Source of the DNA: an uncultured Bdellovibrionales bacterium
GTDB taxonomy: Bacteria > Patescibacteriota > Minisyncoccia > Moranbacterales > UBA1568
Direction: 5' to 3'
Assembly: GCA_964459475.1 (NCBI GenBank)
Contig: CAYWLN010000003.1
Coordinates: 1-36,510 of the forward strand
DNA: 36,510 nt
Shown piece after piece: positions 2,360 to 36,510 of the stretch (positions within the stretch are counted from its first letter, which is position 1; every line of letters starts with the position of its first letter). Under the pieces are notes generated by a model. It was not told where the DNA came from. It saw nothing but the letters and a program-made list of their open reading frames with translations, and ran no database searches. The position numbers were made by a program, and so were the translations under genes.

Positions 2360-4159
2360 ATGAAACGCAATACACCAGAGCAGAGTATCCCTGCTCGTCC
2401 CATTCCTTTTCTTCGATTTATCAGTCGGCCATTTTGGCGTTATGCCGTGGCCACTTTTTTCTTTGTGACCGTGGCTCAATTACTCTCTATTGGGCTCCCG
2501 TTTGTGCTCAAGCTCTTGATCGATGCCCTGGCCCACGCTTCCGGTACCAAGGCACTGACTGAGGCGCTCCTCCACTATGGAGCTCTGTATGTAGCGCTCT
2601 CGACAGCCATGTTTATCGCTTGGCGAGTGAGTGGCTTTTGTGGCATCAACTGGTTGGCTCTCTCCAAAGCGTATTCTTTCCGATTACTCTACGAGTATAT
2701 TACGTTTCACAGTTATACTTATTTCTCCAACCGCTTTGCCGGAGCCATTGCCAACAAAATTTCCCATGCTTCTGATGGTGCTGATGACCTCATGGAGGAT
2801 ATCGTTTGGCACTACTATCCGTCGGTACTCTCTCTGTGTGGCACGGGGGTACTCCTCTTTATTACTGACGTCCGTCTCGCACTCGTCTTTCTCATCCTCG
2901 CCGTAGTCCTCATTGCGCTCAATATCTTCCTCGTGAAGCGTCGCCGACCACTCATCGTCGCCTATGCGGAGGCGTCGTCACTCCTCCGCGGAGTTGGAGT
3001 AGACCTCGTCACCAATATGTCATCGGTCCGCCAGTTTGATCGTCGACTCTTTGAACGAGAGCGACTGGATCAGTATATTGATGATCGCACCAAAAAGGAC
3101 ATCACTCGAGATCGCTCTCAAGAATGGGGTCTCCTCATCAACAACACGCTGGTGGTGATGGCCATTATCGTCATGATGTTCATCTTGGCGCGGGGTGTGA
3201 TGGCTGGAGTGCTCACTGCTGGGGATGTGGTCTTGGTGGTCTCGCTTATCTGGAGTACCTCGTATCAGCTGATCTTTATTGGCAATATGCTGAATGGCTT
3301 CATCCGAGTGTACAGCGAGATAGAAGAGGGGCTCACAGAGACACTTGTCGCGCACGACATCGTAGATGAATCAGGGGCGCAACCACTGGTCGTTCCAAAG
3401 GGACATATTCTCTGGCAGGACGTGGTGTTTCGCTATGATACTCATCCAGTACTCGATCACTTCAATCTCGATATTTTGCCCGGCCAACGACTTGGCCTTG
3501 TCGGTACGAGTGGTGCGGGCAAATCTACCTTTGTATCACTGCTCTTGAGGCAGTACGAAGTAAGTAGTGGCGCCATCCTCATTGATGATCAGAATATCTC
3601 ACACGTGACGCAGGATTCGCTCCGGACGATGATCGCGGTTGTCCCGCAGGAGCCTTCGCTCTTCCACCGTTCTATTCGGGAGAACATCGCTTATGGCAAG
3701 CCAGATTCGACGGAAGCAGAAATTATTGAAGTCGCCAAGAAGGCTGAGGCCCATGATTTTATTAGCGCTTTACCCCAAGGGTATGACACGCTCGTCGGTG
3801 AGCGAGGGGTCAAACTCTCTGGCGGTCAGCGCCAGCGTATCGCCATCGCCCGAGTGATGCTCAAGAATGCTCCGATACTTATCCTCGATGAAGCGACGAG
3901 CGCGCTCGATAGCGAGAGTGAAGTAGCAATCCAAAAGGCACTCCATGAACTCATGGCCGGAAAGACAGTGATCGCTATCGCTCATCGTCTCTCGACGCTC
4001 CGCGAGATGGACCGCATCATCGTCATGGACAAAGGAATGATTGTCGAAGATGGCAGACACGATGTCCTCGCGGCCGCTGGTGGCAAGTACGCCAAACTCT
4101 GGGAGCATCAGGCCGGAGGATTTCTCCAAGAAGAAGCAGAACAAAAAACCGACCACTAG
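2360..4159 (+). CDS. ABC transporter, fused permease/ATP-binding (MsbA/lipid or multidrug exporter type)
   Basis: N-terminal six-helix transmembrane domain. Walker A GTSGAGKST, ABC signature LSGGQRQR, Walker B ILILDEATSALD, H-loop AIAHRLST. Confidence 0.93.
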   Translation: MKRNTPEQSIPARPIPFLRFISRPFWRYAVATFFFVTVAQLLSIGLPFVLKLLIDALAHASGTKALTEALLHYGALYVALSTAMFIAWRVSGFCGINWLALSKAYSFRLLYEYITFHSYTYFSNRFAGAIANKISHASDGADDLMEDIVWHYYPSVLSLCGTGVLLFITDVRLALVFLILAVVLIALNIFLVKRRRPLIVAYAEASSLLRGVGVDLVTNMSSVRQFDRRLFERERLDQYIDDRTKKDITRDRSQEWGLLINNTLVVMAIIVMMFILARGVMAGVLTAGDVVLVVSLIWSTSYQLIFIGNMLNGFIRVYSEIEEGLTETLVAHDIVDESGAQPLVVPKGHILWQDVVFRYDTHPVLDHFNLDILPGQRLGLVGTSGAGKSTFVSLLLRQYEVSSGAILIDDQNISHVTQDSLRTMIAVVPQEPSLFHRSIRENIAYGKPDSTEAEIIEVAKKAEAHDFISALPQGYDTLVGERGVKLSGGQRQRIAIARVMLKNAPILILDEATSALDSESEVAIQKALHELMAGKTVIAIAHRLSTLREMDRIIVMDKGMIVEDGRHDVLAAAGGKYAKLWEHQAGGFLQEEAEQKTDH

Positions 4160-4175
4160 GTCGGCATTTTTGCAC

Positions 4176-4754
4176 CTACGATTTTAACTCATCTACCACC
4201 TTTGGAATTTTTTGAAAGTCTGCGATGAGCGTCTGGCGGAGGGAACCATTGTAGAGCGCGGCCGCCGGATGATAGAGAACAAAAAATGTCTGGGTGCCAA
4301 TATCTGGGAGTGTTCGAGTGAACGATTGACCATGCACCTCGGAAATTTTCTGGCCAGGAATGAAATGTTCCATGGCGTGACGACCGAGAGTGACAATAAC
4401 TTTTGGTCGGATAATCTTTATCTGTTCGTGAAGCCACTCTTCACAAGCGAGGACCTCTGCTGGAAGTGGGTCGCGATTGTCTGGCGGACGATATTTCACG
4501 ATGTTCGTGATGTAGATGTCTTCACGTTTGAGATTGATCGTGGCGAGCATCTCTGCTAAGAATTTGCCCGAGGCTCCAACAAACGGAACGCCCTGTTCAT
4601 CTTCTTTCTTACCGGGCGCTTCTCCGATAAACATGATGTCTGCATCAGGGTTGCCCACCCCTGGTACGGCCTGCGTGGCCGTCGACTTGAGAGTACATGT
4701 GCATGATGCTGCCATGCGAACATTGAGTGCATCGAGTGATTCCTGTTTCGTCAT
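4176..4754 (-). CDS. udg: uracil-DNA glycosylase, family 4
   Basis: Motif A GEAPGKKEDEQGVPFVGASG and motif B-like VLYHPAAALYN. The size of 192 aa is typical. Confidence 0.88.
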   Translation of the reverse strand: MTKQESLDALNVRMAASCTCTLKSTATQAVPGVGNPDADIMFIGEAPGKKEDEQGVPFVGASGKFLAEMLATINLKREDIYITNIVKYRPPDNRDPLPAEVLACEEWLHEQIKIIRPKVIVTLGRHAMEHFIPGQKISEVHGQSFTRTLPDIGTQTFFVLYHPAAALYNGSLRQTLIADFQKIPKVVDELKS

Positions 4755-4757
4755 AGA

Positions 4758-5717
4758 TTATGCAATGGCAAATCCTGTTTCGGTTTCAATAATTTTCCCT
4801 GGTACTTCGAATCCGCTGGCGAGCTTGTGTCCTCCCCCACCAAACTGATGAGCGATAAGCGAGACGTCGATGCCGTGGTGCTCCATAGAGCGGAGACTGG
4901 CCCTCACGATACAGGCATCACGTTCGGAGAGGACCATAGCGAACTTGGCATCGGGCACAGTGGAGAGTATCGATGCGACCTGGTAGATGTCTTCGGCACA
5001 GGCGTCACATTCGGCGATATCCTTTTGAGTGACTGCAGTGACGAGCATGCCGGTCTCCTTATTGAACTTGGCCTTTTCAAATGCCTTGCCCCAGAGCTTC
5101 ATCGCGCCGATATTTTTGTTGGTGAATATCGTCTGAGAAATTTTGGGGAGAGGCGCTCCTTTCTTCATGAGTTCAGAGGCGATCTCCATCACCCGAGGCG
5201 ACACTCCCCCGTGCTGAAAGCCACCCGTATCAAAGAGGATACCCATAAGAAGCATGGTGGCCATGGATTTACTGATGGGGGCGTCGATTGATTTGAGGTA
5301 AAGATAGAGGAGCTCTGAAGTAGACGAATATTCTGGGTCGATGATGACGACATCCCCCTTGAGCTCAATATCAGGGTGATGATCCATGAGCACGATAACC
5401 TGCTCCTCCTTGAACTGATCGATGAGCGTATCGAGACCTCGATCGACACTGTCGCATCCGATCACGGCATCATAACTCTTGAGATCCAGCTGGTCTGGGT
5501 GAAGAAAAGTATGTTCAGCTAGCCCCTTTAGATTATCGGGAAACGGGTTGAAGCAAGCGATATCGACGTGCTTCCCGAGCGAGCGGAGGTATTCCTCAAA
5601 AGCGAGGTTGGAACCTACTGTGTCTGGGTCCGGTCGGTTGTGTGCAAAAAGGAGTACCCGCTCCGCTCTGGAGATGATATAGGAAAGGGTACGGAATTCC
5701 TTGGCAAAACGATGCAT
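4758..5717 (-). CDS. nrnA: DHH/DHHA1 family phosphoesterase (NrnA-like oligoribonuclease / pAp phosphatase)
   Basis: Motifs HNRPDPDTVGS, GCDSVD, LMDHHPD (DHH) and FGGGGHKLASGF (DHHA1 GGGH). Confidence 0.85.
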   Translation of the reverse strand: MHRFAKEFRTLSYIISRAERVLLFAHNRPDPDTVGSNLAFEEYLRSLGKHVDIACFNPFPDNLKGLAEHTFLHPDQLDLKSYDAVIGCDSVDRGLDTLIDQFKEEQVIVLMDHHPDIELKGDVVIIDPEYSSTSELLYLYLKSIDAPISKSMATMLLMGILFDTGGFQHGGVSPRVMEIASELMKKGAPLPKISQTIFTNKNIGAMKLWGKAFEKAKFNKETGMLVTAVTQKDIAECDACAEDIYQVASILSTVPDAKFAMVLSERDACIVRASLRSMEHHGIDVSLIAHQFGGGGHKLASGFEVPGKIIETETGFAIA

Positions 5718-5766
5718 GGCGGATGGGATAAATCTGTATAAGTCAAAAAAATGCCAATTTCAAGCC

Positions 5767-6102
5767 CTATTTAAGTTCGAGGAGGAGTTTCTCTACTTTG
5801 TCAGCTTCTTGCTCTGTGGTGTCGATACTAAATGACAGCTTGGGCATGGGACGCATGTAGAGCTTCGCGTAAAGTTTCTTTTGGATGCCACTAATTTCCT
5901 TTTTGAGTGTTTCGGTCACGTAGTTGGTCTCACTCTCAGGAAAAACACTGACAAACATGCGAGTATAGCGGAGATCCTTGGAGGTGTCAACCCTGGGGAT
6001 AGTAATGATGACTCCAGGCTTGAGGGAGAGTTCGCGCTCCATGATTTCACCGAGAAGCTTTCTCAATTGCTCATTTACTTTGGTAATACGGAGAGTGGAC
6101 AT
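5767..6102 (-). CDS. rbfA: ribosome-binding factor A
   Basis: 111 aa. The pattern RITKVNEQLRKLLGEIM...PRVDTSKDLRYTRMFVSVF is typical of RbfA. Confidence 0.88.
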   Translation of the reverse strand: MSTLRITKVNEQLRKLLGEIMERELSLKPGVIITIPRVDTSKDLRYTRMFVSVFPESETNYVTETLKKEISGIQKKLYAKLYMRPMPKLSFSIDTTEQEADKVEKLLLELK

Positions 6103-6139
6103 ATGGGATAATCGTGTATAAGTGTATAAAATGGCTTGT

Positions 6140-6214
6140 TGGTGCCCTCGGCAGGAGTTGAACCTACGTTTACTCGTTAGGAGTGAGTCGTTCTATCCAC
6201 TGAACTACGAGGGC
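6140..6214 (-). tRNA. tRNA-Arg (CCT), CCA encoded
   Basis: Minus-strand sequence GCCCTCG TA GTTC AGTGGATA GAAC G ACTCA CTCCTAA CGAGT AAAC GTAGG TTCAACT CCTGC CGAGGGC A CCA. There is one A-C mismatch at 31:39. Confidence 0.8.
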
Positions 6215-6284
6215 AATTGATCGATGATTTCTTGAGATAGCTCCCTGCCCGCCGGCAGGCAGGTATCCATTGAGCTACAGAGGC
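6215..6284 (-). other. truncated tRNA 5' copy B with a 20-nt GC hairpin inserted in the D-loop
   Basis: Minus strand: GCCTCTG TA GCTC AATGGATA [CCTGCC-TGCCGGCG-GGCAGG] GAGC, then non-tRNA sequence. The hairpin is at 6244-6263. There is no pairing anticodon stem, T arm or 3' acceptor. Confidence 0.6.
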
Positions 6285-6346
6285 ATAATTTATGAGTGAG
6301 TGTTCCCTGTCTACCGGCAGGCAGGTATCCACTGAACTACGAGGGC
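6285..6346 (-). other. truncated tRNA 5' copy A with a 20-nt GC-rich insertion in the D-loop
   Basis: Minus strand: GCCCTCG TA GTTC AGTGGATA [CCTGCCTGCCGGTAGACAGG] GAAC ACTCA CTCATAA, which then runs directly into copy B. The first 21 nt are identical to the intact tRNA-Arg. The anticodon-loop-like CTCATAA is at 6290-6296. The 3' half is absent. Confidence 0.6.
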
Positions 6347-6403
6347 TTGAGATGGCAAGAATGTACTGTACCACGGTATCTCAATAATATCAATGGAGCC
6401 GGT

Positions 6404-6435
6404 CAAAGTAAAACAAAACTCCTCTTACGAGGAGT
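6404..6435 (-). terminator. rho-independent terminator downstream of tRNA-Ala
   Basis: Minus strand: ACTCCTC-GTAA-GAGGAGT (6418-6435) followed by TTTTGTTTTACTTT. Confidence 0.65.
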
Positions 6436-6459
6436 GTTTATGCTACGTGAGTCGAAGTG

Positions 6460-6532
6460 TGGACCTGAGGAGACTCGAACTCCTGACCTCCTCCATGCCA
6501 TGGAGGCGCTCTACCAGCTAAGCTACAGGCCC
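6460..6532 (-). tRNA. tRNA-Ala (GGC), CCA not encoded
   Basis: Minus strand: GGGCCTG TA GCTT AGCTGGTA GAGC G CCTCC ATGGCAT GGAGG AGGTC AGGAG TTCGAGT CTCCT CAGGTCC A. The G3:U70 Ala identity pair is present. Confidence 0.9.
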
Positions 6533-6594
6533 AAATGCTACTTCCCTATCATACTGATTTCTGGCCATTCGTCAATGTGAGGGAGTAGGGAGAG

Positions 6595-8370
6595 ATGCGA
6601 GTCTGGAGAAAATCCGCTATACTGAAGGCGAAATACTTCCTGACTGCTATGATTCGTATACTGGAACGTCTGCAACTGTCGAATATCTTTCTTCTTGGTT
6701 TCTTTTTGGTTCTCCCACTTTCACTCCGGCACACTTTTGTCGCCTGGAGTCCACTGGGGACGAGTGGCTTCAATGAGTATACTGACGTCTCAGTTTTTCT
6801 ATCGGACCTCGTGCTCCTGTGCTTTATTTTGCTAAAAATATTAGAAAACAAAAGAACATATTTGTCAATAAGTTGGTGGAGGGAAATGTTCCACGTGGAA
6901 CAATGGAAGCTAGCCGTTCTTTCGCCACTCCCCTTTTTGCTGTGGAGCCTCATTTCAACTTTGTGGTCAGAAAACCAATCGTTGGCTATTTATGCCTCAA
7001 TAAAGCTCATTGAAGGTTATTTGCTGTATCTGTTTTTATTGCTAACAATTGTTCCACGTGGAACAATTGAAGCGAGTGATAATAAAAGTTCCACGTGGAA
7101 CATGGCGGATTCGTTAAGTGTTGATCACAAATTGTTCCACGTGGAACAATCACAATCCAATATTTCTAAAGTTGTAAAAAATGTTCCACGTGGAACAATT
7201 GCTTTCTTGAGTCAGATTGTTTCAAAATGTTCCACGTGGAACATTCGTGGATACGTCATTCAAACACTCATTCTATCGGCATCTGCCCAGTCACTCGTTG
7301 CTTTGTATCAGTTTATGGCTCAAAAAAGCCTTGGACTAGCTTTCCTAGGTGAATCACAACTAGGGGCCCAGTGGCCAGGAATAGCCAAGATTCTTATGGA
7401 CGGAGAAGCAATCGTACGACCCTATGGCTTATTTCCGCACCCTAACGTTTTGGCTGGATTTTTAGGATTCGCGATTATTTTGGTAATATTGGAACCGATT
7501 CTTGGATCAGGAAAATTGTTCCACGTGGAACAATCACGGCTACTCTACCGTATCGTTCTTGGTACTCTCAGTTTTGTCTTTCTTGTCACTTTCTCAAAAG
7601 GAGCTATTCTAAGCCTCATTCTTGTTCTGTTTTATATATTTTGGCAAATGTTCCACGTGGAACAAATTATTCACGGTTCAGTAGTTAATACGATAACAAA
7701 TGTTCCACGTGGAACAATAGCGTATTTCAAACGCGTGTACTCGAATTGTTCCACGTGGAACATACATCAATACTGGTTGAAATTGTTCCACGTGGAACAT
7801 TTCTTTGTGGGAACTGTTTTTGTACTGGTTGGCGTTGTACTAGCGCTTGTGGTGCGTTCGCTTGATTGGTATTATTTCCTGTACCAACCTCTGACGGAGC
7901 GATGGCTCTACGTGCAAGGCTTTTTCAGAATGATTATTGATTCATTTTGGCTAGGTATCGGTCTTGGACAGTCTGTTTTCCTCATGCAACACTTTATTGA
8001 AAGAATCCTGTTTGACTGGGAGTTTCAGCCAATACATAACCTTTTTCTGTTAATATGGGCAGAGGTTGGACTAGTTGGCCTGGTCTTATTCGGCTATATT
8101 TGTTCCACGTGGAACAAAACTACTCAAATTCCAAAAATGTTCCACGTGGAACAATGCGTCCAGAAATTTGGTCGCAATCAAAACAATGTTCCACGTGGAA
8201 CAATTTATACTGTCGTCATTGAATCGATCTTTTCTCGAGGAATCTTACTCTATATCTTAATAACGAGCTTATTCGATCATTACTATTGGGATATTCAGCA
8301 GGGGCAACTCCTGTTCTGGACTGTCTGTGCTGTGGCAATTTCACTTAGACTCAGAGTATTGACAAAATAG
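6595..8370 (+). CDS. O-antigen ligase / Wzy_C-family polytopic membrane protein carrying 14 in-frame palindrome insertions
   Basis: Uninterrupted 591-aa ORF in AT-rich DNA, with a GGGAG-rich RBS upstream. Many hydrophobic helices. The family-typical segment is PIHNLFLLIWAEVGLVGLVLF (HN..L....E.G..G), together with LFPHPNVLAGFLGF. The hydrophilic stretches between helices contain the repeat-encoded peptides FHVEQ, VPRGT and STWN. An alternative start at 6649 is possible. Confidence 0.75.
   Translation: MRVWRKSAILKAKYFLTAMIRILERLQLSNIFLLGFFLVLPLSLRHTFVAWSPLGTSGFNEYTDVSVFLSDLVLLCFILLKILENKRTYLSISWWREMFHVEQWKLAVLSPLPFLLWSLISTLWSENQSLAIYASIKLIEGYLLYLFLLLTIVPRGTIEASDNKSSTWNMADSLSVDHKLFHVEQSQSNISKVVKNVPRGTIAFLSQIVSKCSTWNIRGYVIQTLILSASAQSLVALYQFMAQKSLGLAFLGESQLGAQWPGIAKILMDGEAIVRPYGLFPHPNVLAGFLGFAIILVILEPILGSGKLFHVEQSRLLYRIVLGTLSFVFLVTFSKGAILSLILVLFYIFWQMFHVEQIIHGSVVNTITNVPRGTIAYFKRVYSNCSTWNIHQYWLKLFHVEHFFVGTVFVLVGVVLALVVRSLDWYYFLYQPLTERWLYVQGFFRMIIDSFWLGIGLGQSVFLMQHFIERILFDWEFQPIHNLFLLIWAEVGLVGLVLFGYICSTWNKTTQIPKMFHVEQCVQKFGRNQNNVPRGTIYTVVIESIFSRGILLYILITSLFDHYYWDIQQGQLLFWTVCAVAISLRLRVLTK
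6887..6902. repeat. parS-like 16-bp perfect palindrome TGTTCCACGTGGAACA (copy 1)
   Basis: Exact palindrome read directly from the sequence. It is translated as MFHVEQ. Confidence 0.9.
7050..7243. repeat. cluster of 5 parS-like palindromes (copies 2-6)
   Basis: Core starts are 7050, 7087 (14-nt core GTTCCACGTGGAAC at 7088-7101), 7133, 7182 and 7228. The spacings are 37, 46, 49 and 46 bp, with unique AT-rich spacers. Confidence 0.9.
7517..7532. repeat. parS-like palindrome (copy 7)
   Basis: Exact TGTTCCACGTGGAACA, translated as LFHVEQ. Confidence 0.9.
7649..7799. repeat. cluster of 4 parS-like palindromes (copies 8-11)
   Basis: Core starts are 7649, 7701, 7747 and 7784. The spacings are 52, 46 and 37 bp. 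Confidence 0.9.
8101..8202. repeat. cluster of 3 parS-like palindromes (copies 12-14)
   Basis: Core starts are 8101, 8138 and 8187. The spacings are 37 and 49 bp. Confidence 0.9.
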
Positions 8371-8387
8371 TATTTTCGTGTTATAGA
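8359..8387 (+). promoter_or_regulatory. candidate promoter TTGACA-N17-TATAGA
   Basis: -35 at 8359-8364 (inside the last codons of the ligase-like ORF) and -10 at 8382-8387. It would produce a leader of about 260 nt before the ATG at 8658. Confidence 0.35.
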
Positions 8388-8583
8388 ATTTTATCGTACG
8401 ATTGAAGAGATACACCTCGAAATTGCGTCGAGAAATGCAACTTGACCCATGAGCGCACGAGGATATCAGTGAAGATATTTGGTGAAGCAAATTCAATACT
8501 GCGGTCATGAAATATATATGTCGTCATGAGTGGTGAGTACGATTTGTTTGATGAGGCACACACTTTTGCTGTTCGTAAAAAAA

Positions 8584-8601
8584 TGATATACTTTGAGTGA
8601 C
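8584..8601 (+). promoter_or_regulatory. extended -10 element TGaTATACT plus conserved downstream TTGAGTGAC
   Basis: TGATATACTTTGAGTGAC matches 27177-27194 at 17 of 18 positions. It lies 57 nt upstream of the ATG at 8658. Confidence 0.4.
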
Positions 8602-8657
8602 GTGAGAGTAATGAAGCCTCACATCGAGGACACAGGCGCTTAGAATAAAAACACAAT

Positions 8658-9668
8658 ATGTCGTTGGTACGTAAAGGCATTTCACAAGTAGAAATGAGAA
8701 CGTCGTTGTTTCTCTTTTTTGGTCTCCTCATTTTGAGTGTGACTTTTTTTGTATCGGCCGATGATACGATGACAGACAAAAATATTTTTCAGGATTCTGA
8801 TCAGGATGGTTTGAGCAATGACGAAGAAGCGCTCTATAAAACGGATCCACTTGATAAGGATAGTGATGACGATGGTTATACTGATGGTGTTGAGGTAGAG
8901 AGCGGGTATGATCCACTGAAGCCCGCTCCGGGTGACAGAGTTGTGTCAAATACTACAGTTCAAGCTAGCTCAACTCTGGGTGCTTCAGATTCACTGGGTG
9001 AAGTTGATGACGCAAATTTAACGACAGCAGTTTCGGAAGAGATCGCAGGGCTCATACAGCAGGGTAATTCTGCCGAGGGCGAAACAATTACGTTGGATGC
9101 AATTACGGAATCTGTCCAGGGTGTTATGGATAAATCTGATCAGGAAATTGTTCTGCCAGAAGTAGATATAGATTCTATTAATATCAAATCAGTCTCAAAG
9201 AAATTGAAAGGCGAGCGTCGTACAGAGGCTGAGAAGGAAGATATAGTTGAATACTTAACAGTGCTTGCTTATATCTTGGCCAACAATTCTCCGCAAAGTT
9301 TTAAGTCCGAGAAGGACCTTGGCTCTGTACTTACTTCAGCTGCGAGTGGAGCCCTTGGAGCAGTGACGACTGGCAATATGAAGTACCTGGAAGAGTTATC
9401 ATCGAAAAGTAATAAAATTCTATCGGAAATTGATACTATTGAAGTTCCTGAAGCCATGTTAGATGTTCATGTAAAGGCTATTAAAATGGTGAAGTATTCC
9501 TCTCAACTGAAGGATGAGGTAAAGCTTGATAATATTGATGATCCGATTGGTCAGATTTCTTCACTTGGAAAGGTACAGGGTTTCTTGTCAGCCTCTGTAG
9601 ATTTTTCATCTGAAATTTATGCGAAATTACAGACGTATAAAATTGATACTATTCCTTTGAGTCTCTGA
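8658..9668 (+). CDS. secreted or membrane-anchored protein with thrombospondin-type-3-like Asp-rich calcium-binding repeats
   Basis: Hydrophobic N-terminus (LFLFFGLLILSVTFFVSA), with an alternative ATG at 8694. Repeats DSDQDGLSNDEE and DKDSDDDGYTDGVE are present. The remainder is not recognised. Confidence 0.65.
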   Translation: MSLVRKGISQVEMRTSLFLFFGLLILSVTFFVSADDTMTDKNIFQDSDQDGLSNDEEALYKTDPLDKDSDDDGYTDGVEVESGYDPLKPAPGDRVVSNTTVQASSTLGASDSLGEVDDANLTTAVSEEIAGLIQQGNSAEGETITLDAITESVQGVMDKSDQEIVLPEVDIDSINIKSVSKKLKGERRTEAEKEDIVEYLTVLAYILANNSPQSFKSEKDLGSVLTSAASGALGAVTTGNMKYLEELSSKSNKILSEIDTIEVPEAMLDVHVKAIKMVKYSSQLKDEVKLDNIDDPIGQISSLGKVQGFLSASVDFSSEIYAKLQTYKIDTIPLSL

Positions 9669-9673
9669 AGTGT

Positions 9674-10735
9674 ATGTTTAGTCTACGCCACTACATAGCA
9701 AAGAAATTTTTTACGGTACTATTTGTTACTGTGTCAATTATTGGCCCGTCTCTTTTCCCGTTACGGGCTCATGCACAGGTTTGGGGTACGGATGATATTT
9801 TTGGTGATTTGGTAAAGCAAATGCTCGAGGTGGTTAAATCCCAAATTGATGGAGCAATTCTTGCTACTATAAAAGTAGCTGCAATTTCTGCCATGAATAG
9901 CAAAGTAGCTCAGATGATAGGGGGTACTTCACTTGGTGACCAACTCTTTATCTCAGATTGGAATGATTACTTGTATCAAAAGCCAGCCGAGCAAACGAAG
10001 CTTATCATGAACGATTTCTTTACACTGACTACTCGTGGCAAGTACGCTTCGGCCAACTATGTGGGAGTAGGGGATGTTACCGGGAGTGTTTCTGGGAACT
10101 ATCCAGCGTACCTGGTAGCACAAGCACAGCAGTCGATTGGCGATGAGAGCGCCGGACAAGCCGGCTTGGAATATAACCTGGATAGTTATTGCGCCAGTCC
10201 AGATGTCTTGTTTCAGGAGGGTGACTTCAGATGTTTTAATGCTATGATTTCGAATCCAGCTAATAATCCATTTGGGTATACCCTTTCCGCAACAGCATAC
10301 TACGCAAGAACGATGAATCAGAAGATTGAGCAGGCCAGGACGGAGGCCCAGTCATCAGGATATATCGGTAAAAAGCAAAATGGAATGACTATCGCGCCAG
10401 CGGCTACCATTGAAAATATGATGTCTGATGTTCAGAACATTGGAAACAATGTGATTGCTGCTGCGGAGAATCCGGGAATACTTTCAGGTATTGTCCAAGC
10501 AGCCATGAATCGGATTATTTCTAACATGATTCAAAAGGGCATTGGTAATGTTCAGGCAAAAATTCAACGTGAAATTAAGCGCGTTGATAATCAAGTGGTT
10601 GGCGCTTTGGATAAGGCTAATAAGCAGCTTGGTCCCGCAGCCAAATTTACCAAGGAGTGGAGTCAAAAATCTAATGTGGTAAAACCGTACACGGCACCAC
10701 CACCAGCGGCTTGTAGTGTTGAGCAAGGTTGTTAA
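9674..10735 (+). CDS. secreted hypothetical protein
   Basis: Signal peptide ending in LRAHAQ. The start is 5 nt after the preceding stop, consistent with an operon. The C-terminus is Pro- and Cys-rich (PPPAACSVEQGC). No family was recognised. Confidence 0.6.
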   Translation: MFSLRHYIAKKFFTVLFVTVSIIGPSLFPLRAHAQVWGTDDIFGDLVKQMLEVVKSQIDGAILATIKVAAISAMNSKVAQMIGGTSLGDQLFISDWNDYLYQKPAEQTKLIMNDFFTLTTRGKYASANYVGVGDVTGSVSGNYPAYLVAQAQQSIGDESAGQAGLEYNLDSYCASPDVLFQEGDFRCFNAMISNPANNPFGYTLSATAYYARTMNQKIEQARTEAQSSGYIGKKQNGMTIAPAATIENMMSDVQNIGNNVIAAAENPGILSGIVQAAMNRIISNMIQKGIGNVQAKIQREIKRVDNQVVGALDKANKQLGPAAKFTKEWSQKSNVVKPYTAPPPAACSVEQGC

Positions 10736-10742
10736 AATAAAA

Positions 10743-10770
10743 GACTCGGAACAATCCGAGTCTTTTTCTT
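10743..10770. terminator. bidirectional rho-independent terminator
   Basis: GACTCGGA-acaa-TCCGAGTC with TTTTTCTTT on the plus side and TTTTATTTT on the minus side. It lies between the plus-strand CDS and the minus-strand tRNA-Val. Confidence 0.75.
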
Positions 10771-10774
10771 TGGG

Positions 10775-10848
10775 TGGGTGTATCTGGATTCGAACCAGAG
10801 ACCTCTACAATGTCAATGTAGCGCTCTAACCAACTGAGCTATACACCC
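10775..10848 (-). tRNA. tRNA-Val (GAC)
   Basis: Minus strand: GGGTGTA TA GCTC AGTTGGTTA GAGC G CTACA TTGACAT TGTAG AGGTC TCTGG TTCGAAT CCAGA TACACCC A. Confidence 0.9.
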
Positions 10849-11705
10849 GAAATTTCTGTAATCTCTTTTTTTAAGATGGCAGGAAGTGTTGTTTCAAGTG
10901 GATCCTGAGGTGTCGCCAACTTTTGAAAAAATAGGAACCAAACTGTTTGGCGTACTATTTCATAGAAAGCCAGTGCAACAAAGCTTCCGACCAGCATGGA
11001 GGTATCTGCCATACTTAGGAAGAGAGCATGAGAAAGAGCAACAATACCTAGCATAACCAGATTCAGTGAAAAAGTAAAGAGGAGAGCTCCCCACAGAAAG
11101 AAGAGAAAGAATTGTACTGAGAGGGATGTGTTTCTTTGAAAAAGTGCTACGCTCGCCTCGAGGGCCGATTTGAAGCGGATACCTGGAGTAAGGAGGAAGT
11201 AAAAAAAGACAAATTCCCGAAGAATAAATATCACAAGAGAAATAGGGAGTATGACAACAAGGGTGAGCCAGTGGAGAACCGGAGGAATTGCACCGAGAGT
11301 CATGAACGCCATGAGAAGAGGGAGAGCCAGTACGAAGCCAACGAGGAAGATAAAGAGGAGCAAACTCAATTCAATCAAGAGGCCTCGAACGATAGCTTGG
11401 CGCAGTGTGCGGCGTGAAATTGAGGGAGTGTCTTTTCTCGAAGAGACTCGGTGGAGGAGGAGAATCAAACATGACTTACCAATGAGCGAGCATACAAAGG
11501 TGATGATGAGAAAGAGAGAGGTCTCTCGGAAGTGGTTGGTTATATATGAGAGGAGCTCGCTTGATTGGGAAGGGGCATCAGCGAGGTAGTACGTCTGAGC
11601 GAGGATGGGGAGGGCGAGAATAGCTCCTCCTATCCAAAGCTGGCGCCGTCTCAGGGAGAGGCGCCAGCTATCGGAAAGGATGTCGACAAAAGAAAAGGAT
11701 GTCAT
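10839..11705 (-). CDS. polytopic membrane protein, hypothetical
   Basis: 288 aa with about 7 hydrophobic helices. The last three codons and the stop overlap the 5' acceptor strand of tRNA-Val by 10 nt. Confidence 0.6.
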   Translation of the reverse strand: MTSFSFVDILSDSWRLSLRRRQLWIGGAILALPILAQTYYLADAPSQSSELLSYITNHFRETSLFLIITFVCSLIGKSCLILLLHRVSSRKDTPSISRRTLRQAIVRGLLIELSLLLFIFLVGFVLALPLLMAFMTLGAIPPVLHWLTLVVILPISLVIFILREFVFFYFLLTPGIRFKSALEASVALFQRNTSLSVQFFLFFLWGALLFTFSLNLVMLGIVALSHALFLSMADTSMLVGSFVALAFYEIVRQTVWFLFFQKLATPQDPLETTLPAILKKEITEISGV

Positions 11706-30534: not shown

Positions 30535-30891
30535 ATGAAAATTTCCTCCTACAGGGATCTCGTTGTCTGGCAAAAGTCAATGGATTTGGTAGTTTCCGTG
30601 TATCAACTTACGGAAGTGTTTCCGAAAGAGGACGTATTTGGACTTACGTCACAAATGCGAAGGGCTGCTGTTTCCCTCCCATCGAATATTGCTGAAGGGC
30701 GGTACCGTGGAACACGAAAGGATTTTGCGCATTTTCTAAGAATCGCGTTTGCTTCTGGGGCAGAGCTAGAAACACAACTAGAAATTTCACGTAGACTTTC
30801 AAGAATACCATTGATTGAGTACGAACGAATGAGTAATCAACTCGGCGAAGTTATGAAAATGCTGAATGTAATGATAAGTAAACTCTCATGA
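30535..30891 (+). CDS. four-helix-bundle protein (23S rRNA intervening-sequence protein / Avd-like family)
   Basis: 118 aa. SYRDLVVWQKSMDLVVSVYQLT..FPKE..FGLTSQMRRAAVS.PSNIAEG is characteristic of the family. Its stop overlaps the rsmA ATG (ATGA). Confidence 0.88.
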   Translation: MKISSYRDLVVWQKSMDLVVSVYQLTEVFPKEDVFGLTSQMRRAAVSLPSNIAEGRYRGTRKDFAHFLRIAFASGAELETQLEISRRLSRIPLIEYERMSNQLGEVMKMLNVMISKLS

Positions 30892-33589: not shown

Positions 33590-35845
<2,256 letters not shown>

Positions 35846-35849
35846 AGTG

Positions 35850-35879
35850 TAAAAAAGAAGTCCTAGGACTTCTTTTTTC
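35850..35879. terminator. bidirectional terminator (perfect palindrome)
   Basis: AAAAAAGAAGTCCTAGGACTTCTTTTTT lies between the convergent helicase and recombinase genes and overlaps the recombinase stop codon. Confidence 0.7.
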
Positions 35880-36510
35880 TTTTCGCGTGAAATGATTGGT
35901 GGACTTCTTTGAGGCGTTCGTTGGTGACGTGGGTGTAGATCTGGGTCGTCGTGATAGAAGAATGACCGAGCATGGCCTGGACGCTTCTGATGTCAGCACC
36001 ATTAGCAAGGAGGTCAGTAGCAAAGGAGTTGTGAGAGACAAAGCCGTCAGTAATAAGATTCTCAGTCTCAGCCACTGCAAAGTCATAGACGGGAAAGTGA
36101 CCAGAGAGGGTATCGAGTGAGGTGACACGAAGCCATTTGAATTGGTTTTTTCCTGCAAGACGTCGAAGTAAGTTGAGTCGTTCATCTTTGAAACCTATGC
36201 GCTTCAAGCGATTATAAAAGAGAAGAAGAGTATTTTTGGTAGGTACTATTTTGCCACTAGTATAGCGAGATGGATATCGCAGGGTCTGTTGATCAGCGCG
36301 CTTACTGTAGATAGAATATCCGTTTTCTTTGGCCTTACGTACGAGATCGGCGAGCATAGCTCCGGCTGGAATCTTTTCACCGACGTAATCATGTTCGATA
36401 GCAAAGCTTTTCAGTGTAGGAACAAGCCGGCGGAAGCTTTCCTGGTCTGGTTTACATAAAATTTGTAGGATATACATCGTATGGTCAATGGGGTTTGTGC
36501 TGAGTGGTAG
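35863..36510 (-). CDS. XerC/XerD-family tyrosine recombinase interrupted by an intein (5' end beyond the window)
   Basis: The last 54 aa, [34 protein letters not shown], form the box II / catalytic Tyr region. The frame stays open to position 36510. Confidence 0.8.
36028..36510 (-). other. intein, C-terminal portion (at least 161 aa, partial)
   Basis: It ends in [21 protein letters not shown] (blocks F and G) and is followed immediately by the +1 nucleophile Ser (codon 36025-36027) of the extein SFATDLL. Confidence 0.75.

Follow-up and report, generated by a model that had tools for sequence, protein, structure and literature searches.

A chromosomal xer recombinase gene of Patescibacteria, very probably interrupted by an apparently still mobile class-1 LAGLIDADG intein

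Introduction

Most inteins have been described in enzymes of replication, repair, and nucleotide metabolism. The 3' end of contig CAYWLN010000003.1 (positions 1-36510; this 36510-nt stretch as a whole is called the window) raises the question of whether a site-specific recombinase can also be a natural host. On its minus strand, an open reading frame (ORF) that runs in from the edge of the window finishes as an Xer-type tyrosine recombinase, and the residues preceding the recombinase part resemble the C-terminal end of an intein. A sequence-only reading of the window had proposed an intein inserted at the catalytic box of a Xer recombinase and had named the points that should be checked outside the window. 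Here, the missing half of the gene was recovered from public assemblies, its relatives were collected, and the traces of its recent history were analyzed. We concluded that, very probably, the window contains the 3' part of a chromosomal xer gene, of the Xer/XerA kind and single-copy type, from an ultra-small member of Patescibacteria (the candidate phyla radiation, CPR), that an approximately 422-aa class-1 LAGLIDADG intein interrupts this gene, and that the intein is apparently still mobile.

Results

The xer/intein ORF runs on the minus strand from 36510 to 35863 including its TAG stop codon (35863-35865, read directly from the sequence), comprises 215 codons, and stays open at the window edge, which is an assembly or cutting boundary and not the end of the gene. 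Its last 54 residues (162-215, nt 36027-35866, minus strand) constitute the C-extein, that is, the end of box II and the catalytic-Tyr region of a Xer recombinase, including the conserved His183 (35964-35962) and the catalytic Tyr192 (35937-35935). These residues matched positions 135-171 of the Pfam Phage_integrase profile (E 2.9e-11) and the last approximately 50 positions only of the NCBIfam XerD, XerC, and XerA models, while Escherichia coli XerD (1a0p) could be aligned with them at HVLRH/AFATHLL (the slash marks the junction here and below) and a second XerD structure, 5dcf, was matched as well. As far as these alignments tell, the break caused by the insertion falls directly after the box II His-x-x-Arg-His. 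Residues 1-161 (36510-36028, minus strand) are the C-terminal part of the intein, and they end with the penultimate His160 and the terminal Asn161 (AAC, 36030-36028), which are followed by the +1 Ser162 (TCC, 36027-36025), the first C-extein residue and the predicted nucleophile of transesterification. Intein blocks F and G occupy 36093-36028 on the same strand, and the NCBIfam model TIGR01443 ("intein C-terminal splicing region") covered residues 140-162 with 25.8 bits against a curated cut-off of 15.6. Pfam Intein_splicing matched residues 92-161 with 20.3 bits, which is below its gathering score of 35.8, because the window contains only the C-terminal part of this domain; the N-terminal approximately 261 aa of the intein lie outside. 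Since about 32 database proteins share the same arrangement and 52 genome loci were hit by a query that contained intein sequence only, the intein match is not a chance similarity. Thus, the sequence-only reading had identified both parts correctly and with exact counts, and it had also rightly placed the N-extein and the N-terminus of the intein beyond the window edge, although it had not stated the strand.

To the N-terminal side of block F, two further parts of the intein are visible in the window. The first is the end of the LAGLIDADG endonuclease domain (36510-36409, minus strand), that is, the last strands and a helix after the second LAGLIDADG motif. In an intein-only alignment of eight sequences (A1), this segment stands directly after the ...LLLRLGIxAHLYxRxRxV stretch of the endonuclease, and its L, P, Q, and PTxK residues are invariant in all eight, while in the larger 47-intein alignment described below only L, P, T, and K are conserved at 90% or more. 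The structural models placed a strand at residues 8-17 and a helix at 20-29 of the window fragment, and strands at 247-273 of a homologue. The second part, between the endonuclease and block F, is a helical module (36363-36151, minus strand, approximately residues 50-120 of the fragment), which is found in all A1 relatives and is the best-predicted portion of the AlphaFold fragment model, with four helices and a predicted local distance difference test score (pLDDT) of 82-90. This module may add DNA binding. When it was searched alone, no significant fold match was obtained in the PDB, and a lambda-repressor-like identity was set aside, as the matches were weak (probability 0.15) and do not count as evidence.

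The upstream half of the gene was found on a 1629-nt public contig, L003, which is 98.9% identical in nucleotides and 99.5% in amino acids to the window over all 648 nt of the ORF, including 0 differences in the 483 nt of intein sequence. Upstream of the shared part, L003 contains the rest of a complete 422-aa intein preceded by 59 aa of N-extein (...IARIVKHYATKAGILKDVHPHTLRH/CLHAETRISLPRAI...), and the N-terminal junction reads ...HPHTLRH/CLHAETRI..., with Cys1, block A (CLHAETRISLPR), and a TPEH block B. The same gene was also traced in four freshwater metagenome runs (X1-X4, study P1), which contain 99-100% of the words sampled from the window. In each run, one assembled Logan contig of 4.2-10.5 kb covers positions 1-1623 of L003 with 18 substitutions and 0 gaps, enters the window's own downstream sequence, and extends 417 to 8344 nt further upstream. 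Applying these substitutions to L003 changed a single amino acid in the part outside the window, and altogether the window organism differs from L003 by 12 synonymous and two amino-acid changes. As the four contigs run over L003 without gaps, the window organism has the whole intein in frame. The N-terminal features that had been expected upstream of the window edge, namely the HPHTLRH motif, Cys1 with its block A, and block B, were therefore present in both L003 and the X1-X4 contigs.

Pfam analysis of the joined protein detected LAGLIDADG_3 (PF14528, 74 bits), a two-piece match to Phage_integrase, and Intein_splicing (PF14890), which now, with 39.8 bits, exceeds its gathering score of 35.8. 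In the full-length relatives L001, L008, and L024, Intein_splicing scored 54-72 bits, the SAM-like N-terminal domain is present, and the Phage_integrase pieces on either side of the insertion both break off at profile position 135, so the recombinase N-terminal and core domains, whose absence would have pointed to a fusion or a pseudogene, are retained. The blocks follow in the order A (C-L-H-x-x-T-R-I), B (T-P-E-H), C (LLGYICGDG), E (FLAGFYDAEGN), and F/G (VYDF...), and then comes the +1 Ser. L003 contains the two LAGLIDADG motifs that had been looked for in the middle of the intein, LLGYICGDGH and FLAGFYDAEGN, each with its terminal acidic residue, and only the tail of this domain reaches the window. 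The solved proteins nearest by sequence are the archaeal VMA inteins, the Pho RadA intein, and PI-PfuI. At the level of fold, the AlphaFold model of the homologue P0122, which is a near-whole intein (predicted template modelling score 0.70), matched the TliVMA intein 7qss over 401 columns (E 4e-17) and also PI-PfuI, PI-SceI, PI-TkoII, and I-DmoI. On every sequence-level feature that was tested, the element reads as a classical class-1 intein with a Hint domain and a two-motif LAGLIDADG endonuclease. Bacterial intein-like (BIL) domains are Hint domains in variable, non-conserved proteins and usually lack both the +1 nucleophile and an endonuclease; this identity was ruled out by the conserved active-site position, the Ser/Cys at +1, and the LAGLIDADG endonuclease. 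A split intein was ruled out by the continuous frame found in 44 loci, and an endonuclease-integrase fusion by the uninterrupted frames together with the retained splice residues.

To see how widely the arrangement occurs, alignment A1 was scanned against a genome collection containing one genome per species. This revealed 52 loci, all in Patescibacteria-type metagenome-assembled genomes (MAGs); their contigs are up to 766 kb long and were produced in many independent studies with many assemblers. With the window fragment as query, a protein search retrieved the about 32 database proteins that combine the intein C-terminus with the Xer C-terminus, nearly all of them on short contigs and all N-terminally truncated, in addition to thousands of Xer proteins that lack an intein; in neither protein search was the 730-aa product present at full length. 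Further analysis was based on 48 xer genes that carry the intein, of which 46 come from genome loci, one from an IMG/VR contig, and one from the window organism. In all 48, a Cys directly follows HxxR[H], and SHN directly precedes [S/C][F/Y]A[T/I]. At +1, most relatives have Ser, whereas five genome loci have Cys. The frame is single and uninterrupted, 698-775 aa long, in 44 loci. In the alignment of 47 inteins, from which the IMG/VR contig was left out, Cys1, the block B His, GDG, YDAEGN (thus both acidic residues of the LAGLIDADG motifs), and SHN are conserved at 90% or more, as is the V..DF...N.ITDG..SHN signature, which is invariant in 33 sequences. Among classes, the distribution of the intein is patchy, and all informative intein-bearing loci look like Patescibacteria.

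Such a consistent set bears on two other explanations of the locus. If the insertion did not splice, the gene would be a dead xer, a pseudogene in which a LAGLIDADG endonuclease is fused to the remnant of a recombinase. This would agree with the names given to the relatives by NCBI, which are either "LAGLIDADG family homing endonuclease" or "tyrosine-type recombinase/integrase," with the many entries that begin inside the intein (for instance P0122, P0123, and P0124; the P0122 entry takes intein residue 2 for its initial Met), and with the absence of the N-extein from the window. These short entries are, however, contig-end fragments or products of mis-called starts, so the mis-annotation is systematic. 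A dead gene would also hardly preserve one frame of 698-775 aa through N-extein, intein, and C-extein at 44 independent loci, keep Cys1, the block B His, the terminal His-Asn, the Ser or Cys at +1 and the catalytic residues of the exteins, and accumulate 12 synonymous changes against two amino-acid changes between the window organism and L003. We consider a pseudogene very improbable. An assembly artefact, that is, a chimeric join of an intein-containing gene with xer, might be suspected because the window ends inside the element and the database copies bearing the intein are nearly all on short contigs. It would nevertheless have to recur with the same junctions at 52 loci, in the data of many studies and assemblers and on contigs as long as 766 kb, as well as in Logan contigs of eight separate runs, and it would have to cut the Phage_integrase hidden Markov model at one exact profile position each time. 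This possibility is practically negligible, and the interrupted xer gene is treated below as a real one.

Two groups of records deserve a separate remark. Five MAG records labelled Gammaproteobacteria or Pseudomonadales (L007 and L009-L012) also carry an intein-bearing Xer. By extein, L009 is nearest to a Microgenomates locus (L031, 88%) and L012 to a Woesebacteria locus (L017, 79%), and L007 and L011 are nearest to other records of the same mislabelled group (L010 was outside the comparison); the taxonomic labels of the five are probably wrong. Contig L056 (IMGVR_UViG_3300025015_000021, 93.9 kb), which stems from a viral collection, has at 3975-6134 the complete gene of a 719-aa Xer whose intein is bounded by the same junctions. 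Either a Patescibacteria contig was misfiled there, or a phage or prophage carries the element and could be a vector for it.

The host protein was characterized through alleles in which the site is empty. The C-extein of the window is 93-96% identical to intein-free Xer proteins of Moranbacteria-type Patescibacteria (P0033-P0041). One such intein-free protein, P0038, is a 327-aa Xer encoded on a 1.6-kb Logan contig (L054). It reads ...HPHTLRHSFATDLL..., has HTLRHSFATDLL at the junction, and shares all of the last 59 N-extein residues (100% identity) with the window organism. P0033 and P0034 are likewise gapless across the site (HTLRH/SFATDLL), and since the intein-free alleles have this sequence, the +1 Ser is a native residue of the host protein. 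P0034 keeps the convergent uvrD neighbor of the window, and in L055, uvrD synteny is retained beside an intein-free xer. In NCBIfam, P0038 passed the XerA-type model NF040815 (235.4 against a cut-off of 220) and fell below both equivalogs (XerD, 239.5 against 329.6; XerC, 238.7 against 335.15); as only the XerA-type model was passed, the host belongs to the Xer family and is not assignable to XerC or XerD. P0038 and the full-length intein-bearing relatives possess the full catalytic set R-K-HxxR-H/W-Y together with the SAM-like domain. In the interrupted gene, these residues are distributed over both sides of the insertion, with His183 and Tyr192 in the window and HxxR in L003. Given its family membership and its housekeeping chromosomal context, the host is predicted to resolve chromosome dimers at dif.

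L003 also offered a comparison that is informative about the history of the intein. The L003-type strain was found in wastewater and activated-sludge runs holding 59% of the words of the window, a share that corresponds to about the intein and the first approximately 60 nt of the C-extein. When the contigs of these runs were aligned to the window, with uvrD as a chromosomal yardstick, the divergence formed a gradient. It amounts to 97-98 of 791 nt (12%) in uvrD (34800-35590), to about 22 of 186 nt over the end of uvrD and the spacer (35680-35865), and to seven of 165 nt in the C-extein, six of them synonymous and all more than 66 nt from the junction. It falls to 0 of 483 nt in the window part of the intein and three of 1266 nt (approximately 99.8% identity) in the whole intein, and then rises to four of 177 nt in the N-extein, where the nearest difference is 63 nt from the junction. 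The contrast is significant both between intein and C-extein within the window (Fisher p 6e-5) and between the intein and both exteins (p 7e-6). An intein that is nearly identical across an approximately 12% gap in uvrD, with the similarity decaying about 60 nt into the exteins, is the footprint expected of homing with co-conversion, and selection cannot explain the gradient because synonymous sites are affected. The pattern therefore points to recent lateral movement by homing with co-conversion, as judged from sequence comparison. The empty alleles added a further trace of this kind. Between the window organism and the intein-free L054, only six of 177 N-extein nucleotides differ, against 30 of 165 C-extein nucleotides (p 6e-6), whereas the intein-free L055 is evenly diverged (34 and 30 nt, respectively). 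Due to this unevenness in L054, a recombination breakpoint of either the L054 or the window lineage is placed exactly at the insertion site.

The same data bear on the alternative that the intein is a fixed, domesticated, or decaying passenger with purely vertical inheritance within Patescibacteria, which still splices but whose endonuclease no longer homes. When 41 full-length genes were compared pairwise, the identities of intein and extein were positively correlated (Spearman 0.40), which implies some vertical inheritance. The average identity is lower for the inteins (41%) than for the exteins (52%), which is what a relaxed passenger would show. Nearest neighbors in the two parts agree, however, in only 13 of the 41 genes, and in the pair L008 and L016, the inteins are 83% identical while the exteins are 65% identical. 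A strictly vertical passenger is also at odds with the approximately 99.8% identity and the decay into both exteins described above, with the existence of near-identical empty-site alleles, with the patchy distribution across classes, and with the conservation at 90% or more of both catalytic acidic residues and many other endonuclease positions in the 47 copies. Hence, this alternative appears unlikely, though it is the most serious of those considered. The history of the intein looks like a mixture of vertical descent and lateral transfer within Patescibacteria, and an apparently still mobile intein remains our preferred reading.

The surroundings of the gene are those of an ordinary chromosome. 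Convergent with xer and outside the element lies a gene for a 751-aa UvrD/PcrA-type helicase (33590-35845, plus strand), identified by Pfam UvrD-helicase (319 bits), UvrD_C (259 bits), and PcrA_UvrD_tudor. The other genes of the window encode an ABC transporter, UDG, a DHH phosphoesterase, FtsH, a TilS-like PP-loop protein, ribosomal protein S1, GyrA (816 aa, without an intein), a UMP-kinase-like protein, PNPase, a ComM-like Mg-chelatase protein, KsgA (rRNA adenine dimethylase), and a UbiA-family membrane protein. Neither a second integrase gene nor another intein was found among the window ORFs scanned with Pfam, and the host of the intein may be the only Xer recombinase of the organism. Between uvrD and xer, a perfect 16-nt palindrome, GAAGTCCTAGGACTTC (35857-35872), can be read from the sequence; it overlaps the TAG of xer, is flanked by runs of A6-7 and T6 (the whole feature spans 35851-35879, with no strand assigned), and looks like a shared two-way terminator of the two convergent genes. 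A scan with a terminator consensus did not report this palindrome at the xer stop.

Some observations concern other parts of the window or of the comparison. Within uvrD, 89 nt of the C-terminal part (35590-35680) are replaced by 95 unalignable letters in the L003-type strain in four of four runs, while the flanks are approximately 88% identical; this segment is a hypervariable linker ahead of the PcrA/UvrD tudor domain. The region of about 6000-11000 has a G+C content of 0.40-0.46 against approximately 0.51 elsewhere and contains genes for an O-antigen-ligase-like membrane protein (6595-8370) and a bacterial TSP3-repeat protein (8658-9668) as well as two ORFs without a Pfam match, and it may be a laterally acquired cell-surface island. 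Next to ksgA, at 30535-30891, a "23S rRNA intervening sequence protein" (PF05635, 126 bits) is encoded by a gene that stands free, with no rRNA gene in view, while such proteins are normally encoded inside rRNA intervening sequences. Finally, chain 14 of the PDB entry 9i5v (401 aa), which is labelled "Ribosome-associated translation inhibitor RaiA," could be aligned with Xer over residues 7-299 (E 2e-20), so judging by the alignment it looks as if either the label is wrong or the entry contains an unexpected recombinase-like protein. The chain is Xer-like over its whole recombinase length and was set aside as evidence on the intein.

Discussion

The conclusion that the window carries the end of an intein-interrupted xer gene has to be weighed against several points that speak for caution. 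The N-terminal splice junction lies outside the window itself, and beyond its last 59 aa, the N-extein of the window organism is deduced from contig continuity and P0038 only. L003 is a 1.6-kb co-assembly contig, and the divergence pattern at its ends could partly reflect assembly mosaicism; in runs X11 and X14, however, the pattern is repeated on longer contigs. For the window fragment, AlphaFold reached a mean pLDDT of 63.6, and a fold search with this model gave no match with E <0.9. Splicing, DNA cleavage, and the dependence of Xer on them are read from sequence, and the conservation of the endonuclease residues is compatible with activity and no proof of it. Considering these points together with the recovered junctions and the homing footprint, we still regard the intein-interrupted, apparently mobile state of the gene as very probable.

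The intein lies between His and Ser of ...H-x-x-R-H/S-F-A-T-D-L-L, directly after the box II Arg, and splits the catalytic pocket of the precursor, leaving Arg, Lys, and HxxR on one side and His and Tyr on the other. With its pocket split, the precursor should be inactive until the intein is excised. If the intact residues function as they do in class-1 inteins, excision would start with an acyl shift at Cys1, followed by transesterification to Ser+1 and by the cyclization of Asn161, and a final acyl shift would create the peptide bond. The products would be an approximately 327-aa recombinase reading HTLRHSFATDLL and a free endonuclease. The latter, if its conserved LAGLIDADG residues and the population footprint are taken as signs of homing, would cut the intein-free xer at a site of about 20 bp spanning ...CAT ACG CTN CGT CAY/TCN TTT GCN ACN GAY..., and repair from the intein-bearing copy would then insert the intein, carrying along short flanking stretches of the exteins. 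That the unspliced precursor is inactive, and consequently that dimer resolution would depend on splicing, as the sequence-only reading had also supposed, is what knowledge of the recombinase family leads us to infer. One step further, the intein might not be purely parasitic, and splicing might serve as a post-translational gate on chromosome-dimer resolution or on the Xer-dependent integration of mobile DNA in these genome-reduced bacteria. We regard such a regulatory role as doubtful; its trigger could be the thiol of Cys1 or DNA binding by the helical module, by analogy with the conditionally splicing RadA and DnaB inteins.

The claim that a site-specific recombinase is an unusual host for an intein stood only in part. 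It agrees with the literature, as a full-text search found no natural intein in a tyrosine recombinase or Xer, and the main text of the intein survey of Novikova et al. (PMC4760082) contains no integrase or Xer, although an earlier listing in a supplementary table is possible. It does not agree with the sequence data, in which the element is widespread among Patescibacteria MAGs under other annotations. What is new is thus the host protein and the insertion site, while the element is a textbook intein in kind, and the databases already hold mis-named and mostly truncated copies of it. A site-specific tyrosine recombinase can accordingly be added to the natural intein hosts, and the location in its active site fits the rule that inteins persist where precise deletion is the only tolerated loss. 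The fresh homing footprint over a species gap of approximately 12% provides a natural system for following the spread of inteins in uncultured, host-dependent bacteria. In current annotation pipelines, these genes wrongly come out as truncated integrases or short "LAGLIDADG endonucleases," and with nearly all intein-bearing database copies on short contigs, Xer may be under-counted in CPR genomes. As candidate tools, the element offers a recombinase-compatible intein and a new LAGLIDADG specificity for a highly conserved codon string of recombinases.

Among the known systems, the closest are the homing endonuclease (HEN)-associated class-1 inteins of archaea and their kin (TliVMA/PhoVMA, 7qss, 7qsu, and 7qst; PI-PfuI, 1dq3; PI-SceI, 1vde and 1lws), which have the same build of a Hint domain and a two-motif LAGLIDADG endonuclease. 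They share Cys1, the block B His, the C-terminal His-Asn, and the +1 nucleophile with the Xer intein, are likewise inserted into a conserved active-site motif of a nucleic-acid enzyme, and were the best matches both by sequence and, for the model of the homologue, by fold (E 4e-17 to 1e-8). The Xer intein differs from them in that it interrupts a tyrosine recombinase instead of an ATPase, polymerase, or reductase and occurs in Patescibacteria; the identity is only approximately 20%, and the Xer intein has an extra helical module of about 70-100 aa ahead of block F. The Pho RadA mini-intein (2lqm, 4e2t) resembles it in the N-terminal and block B region of Hint (E 1.7e-5) and is also a class-1 intein in a recombination protein, but it has no endonuclease, and its host is a strand-exchange ATPase instead of a site-specific recombinase. 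On the side of the host, P0038 aligns end to end with the Xer recombinases XerD (1a0p, 5dcf) and archaeal XerA (5hxy, 4a8e) with E values of 1e-30 to 1e-34, and it has Asp in SFATDLL where XerD has His. Recombinases whose activity depends on protein splicing have been engineered by combining the phiC31 integrase with the Npu DnaE split intein (PMC6868429). That system is artificial, acts by trans-splicing, and uses a serine integrase, whereas the Xer intein is natural, is predicted to splice in cis, and resides in a tyrosine recombinase.

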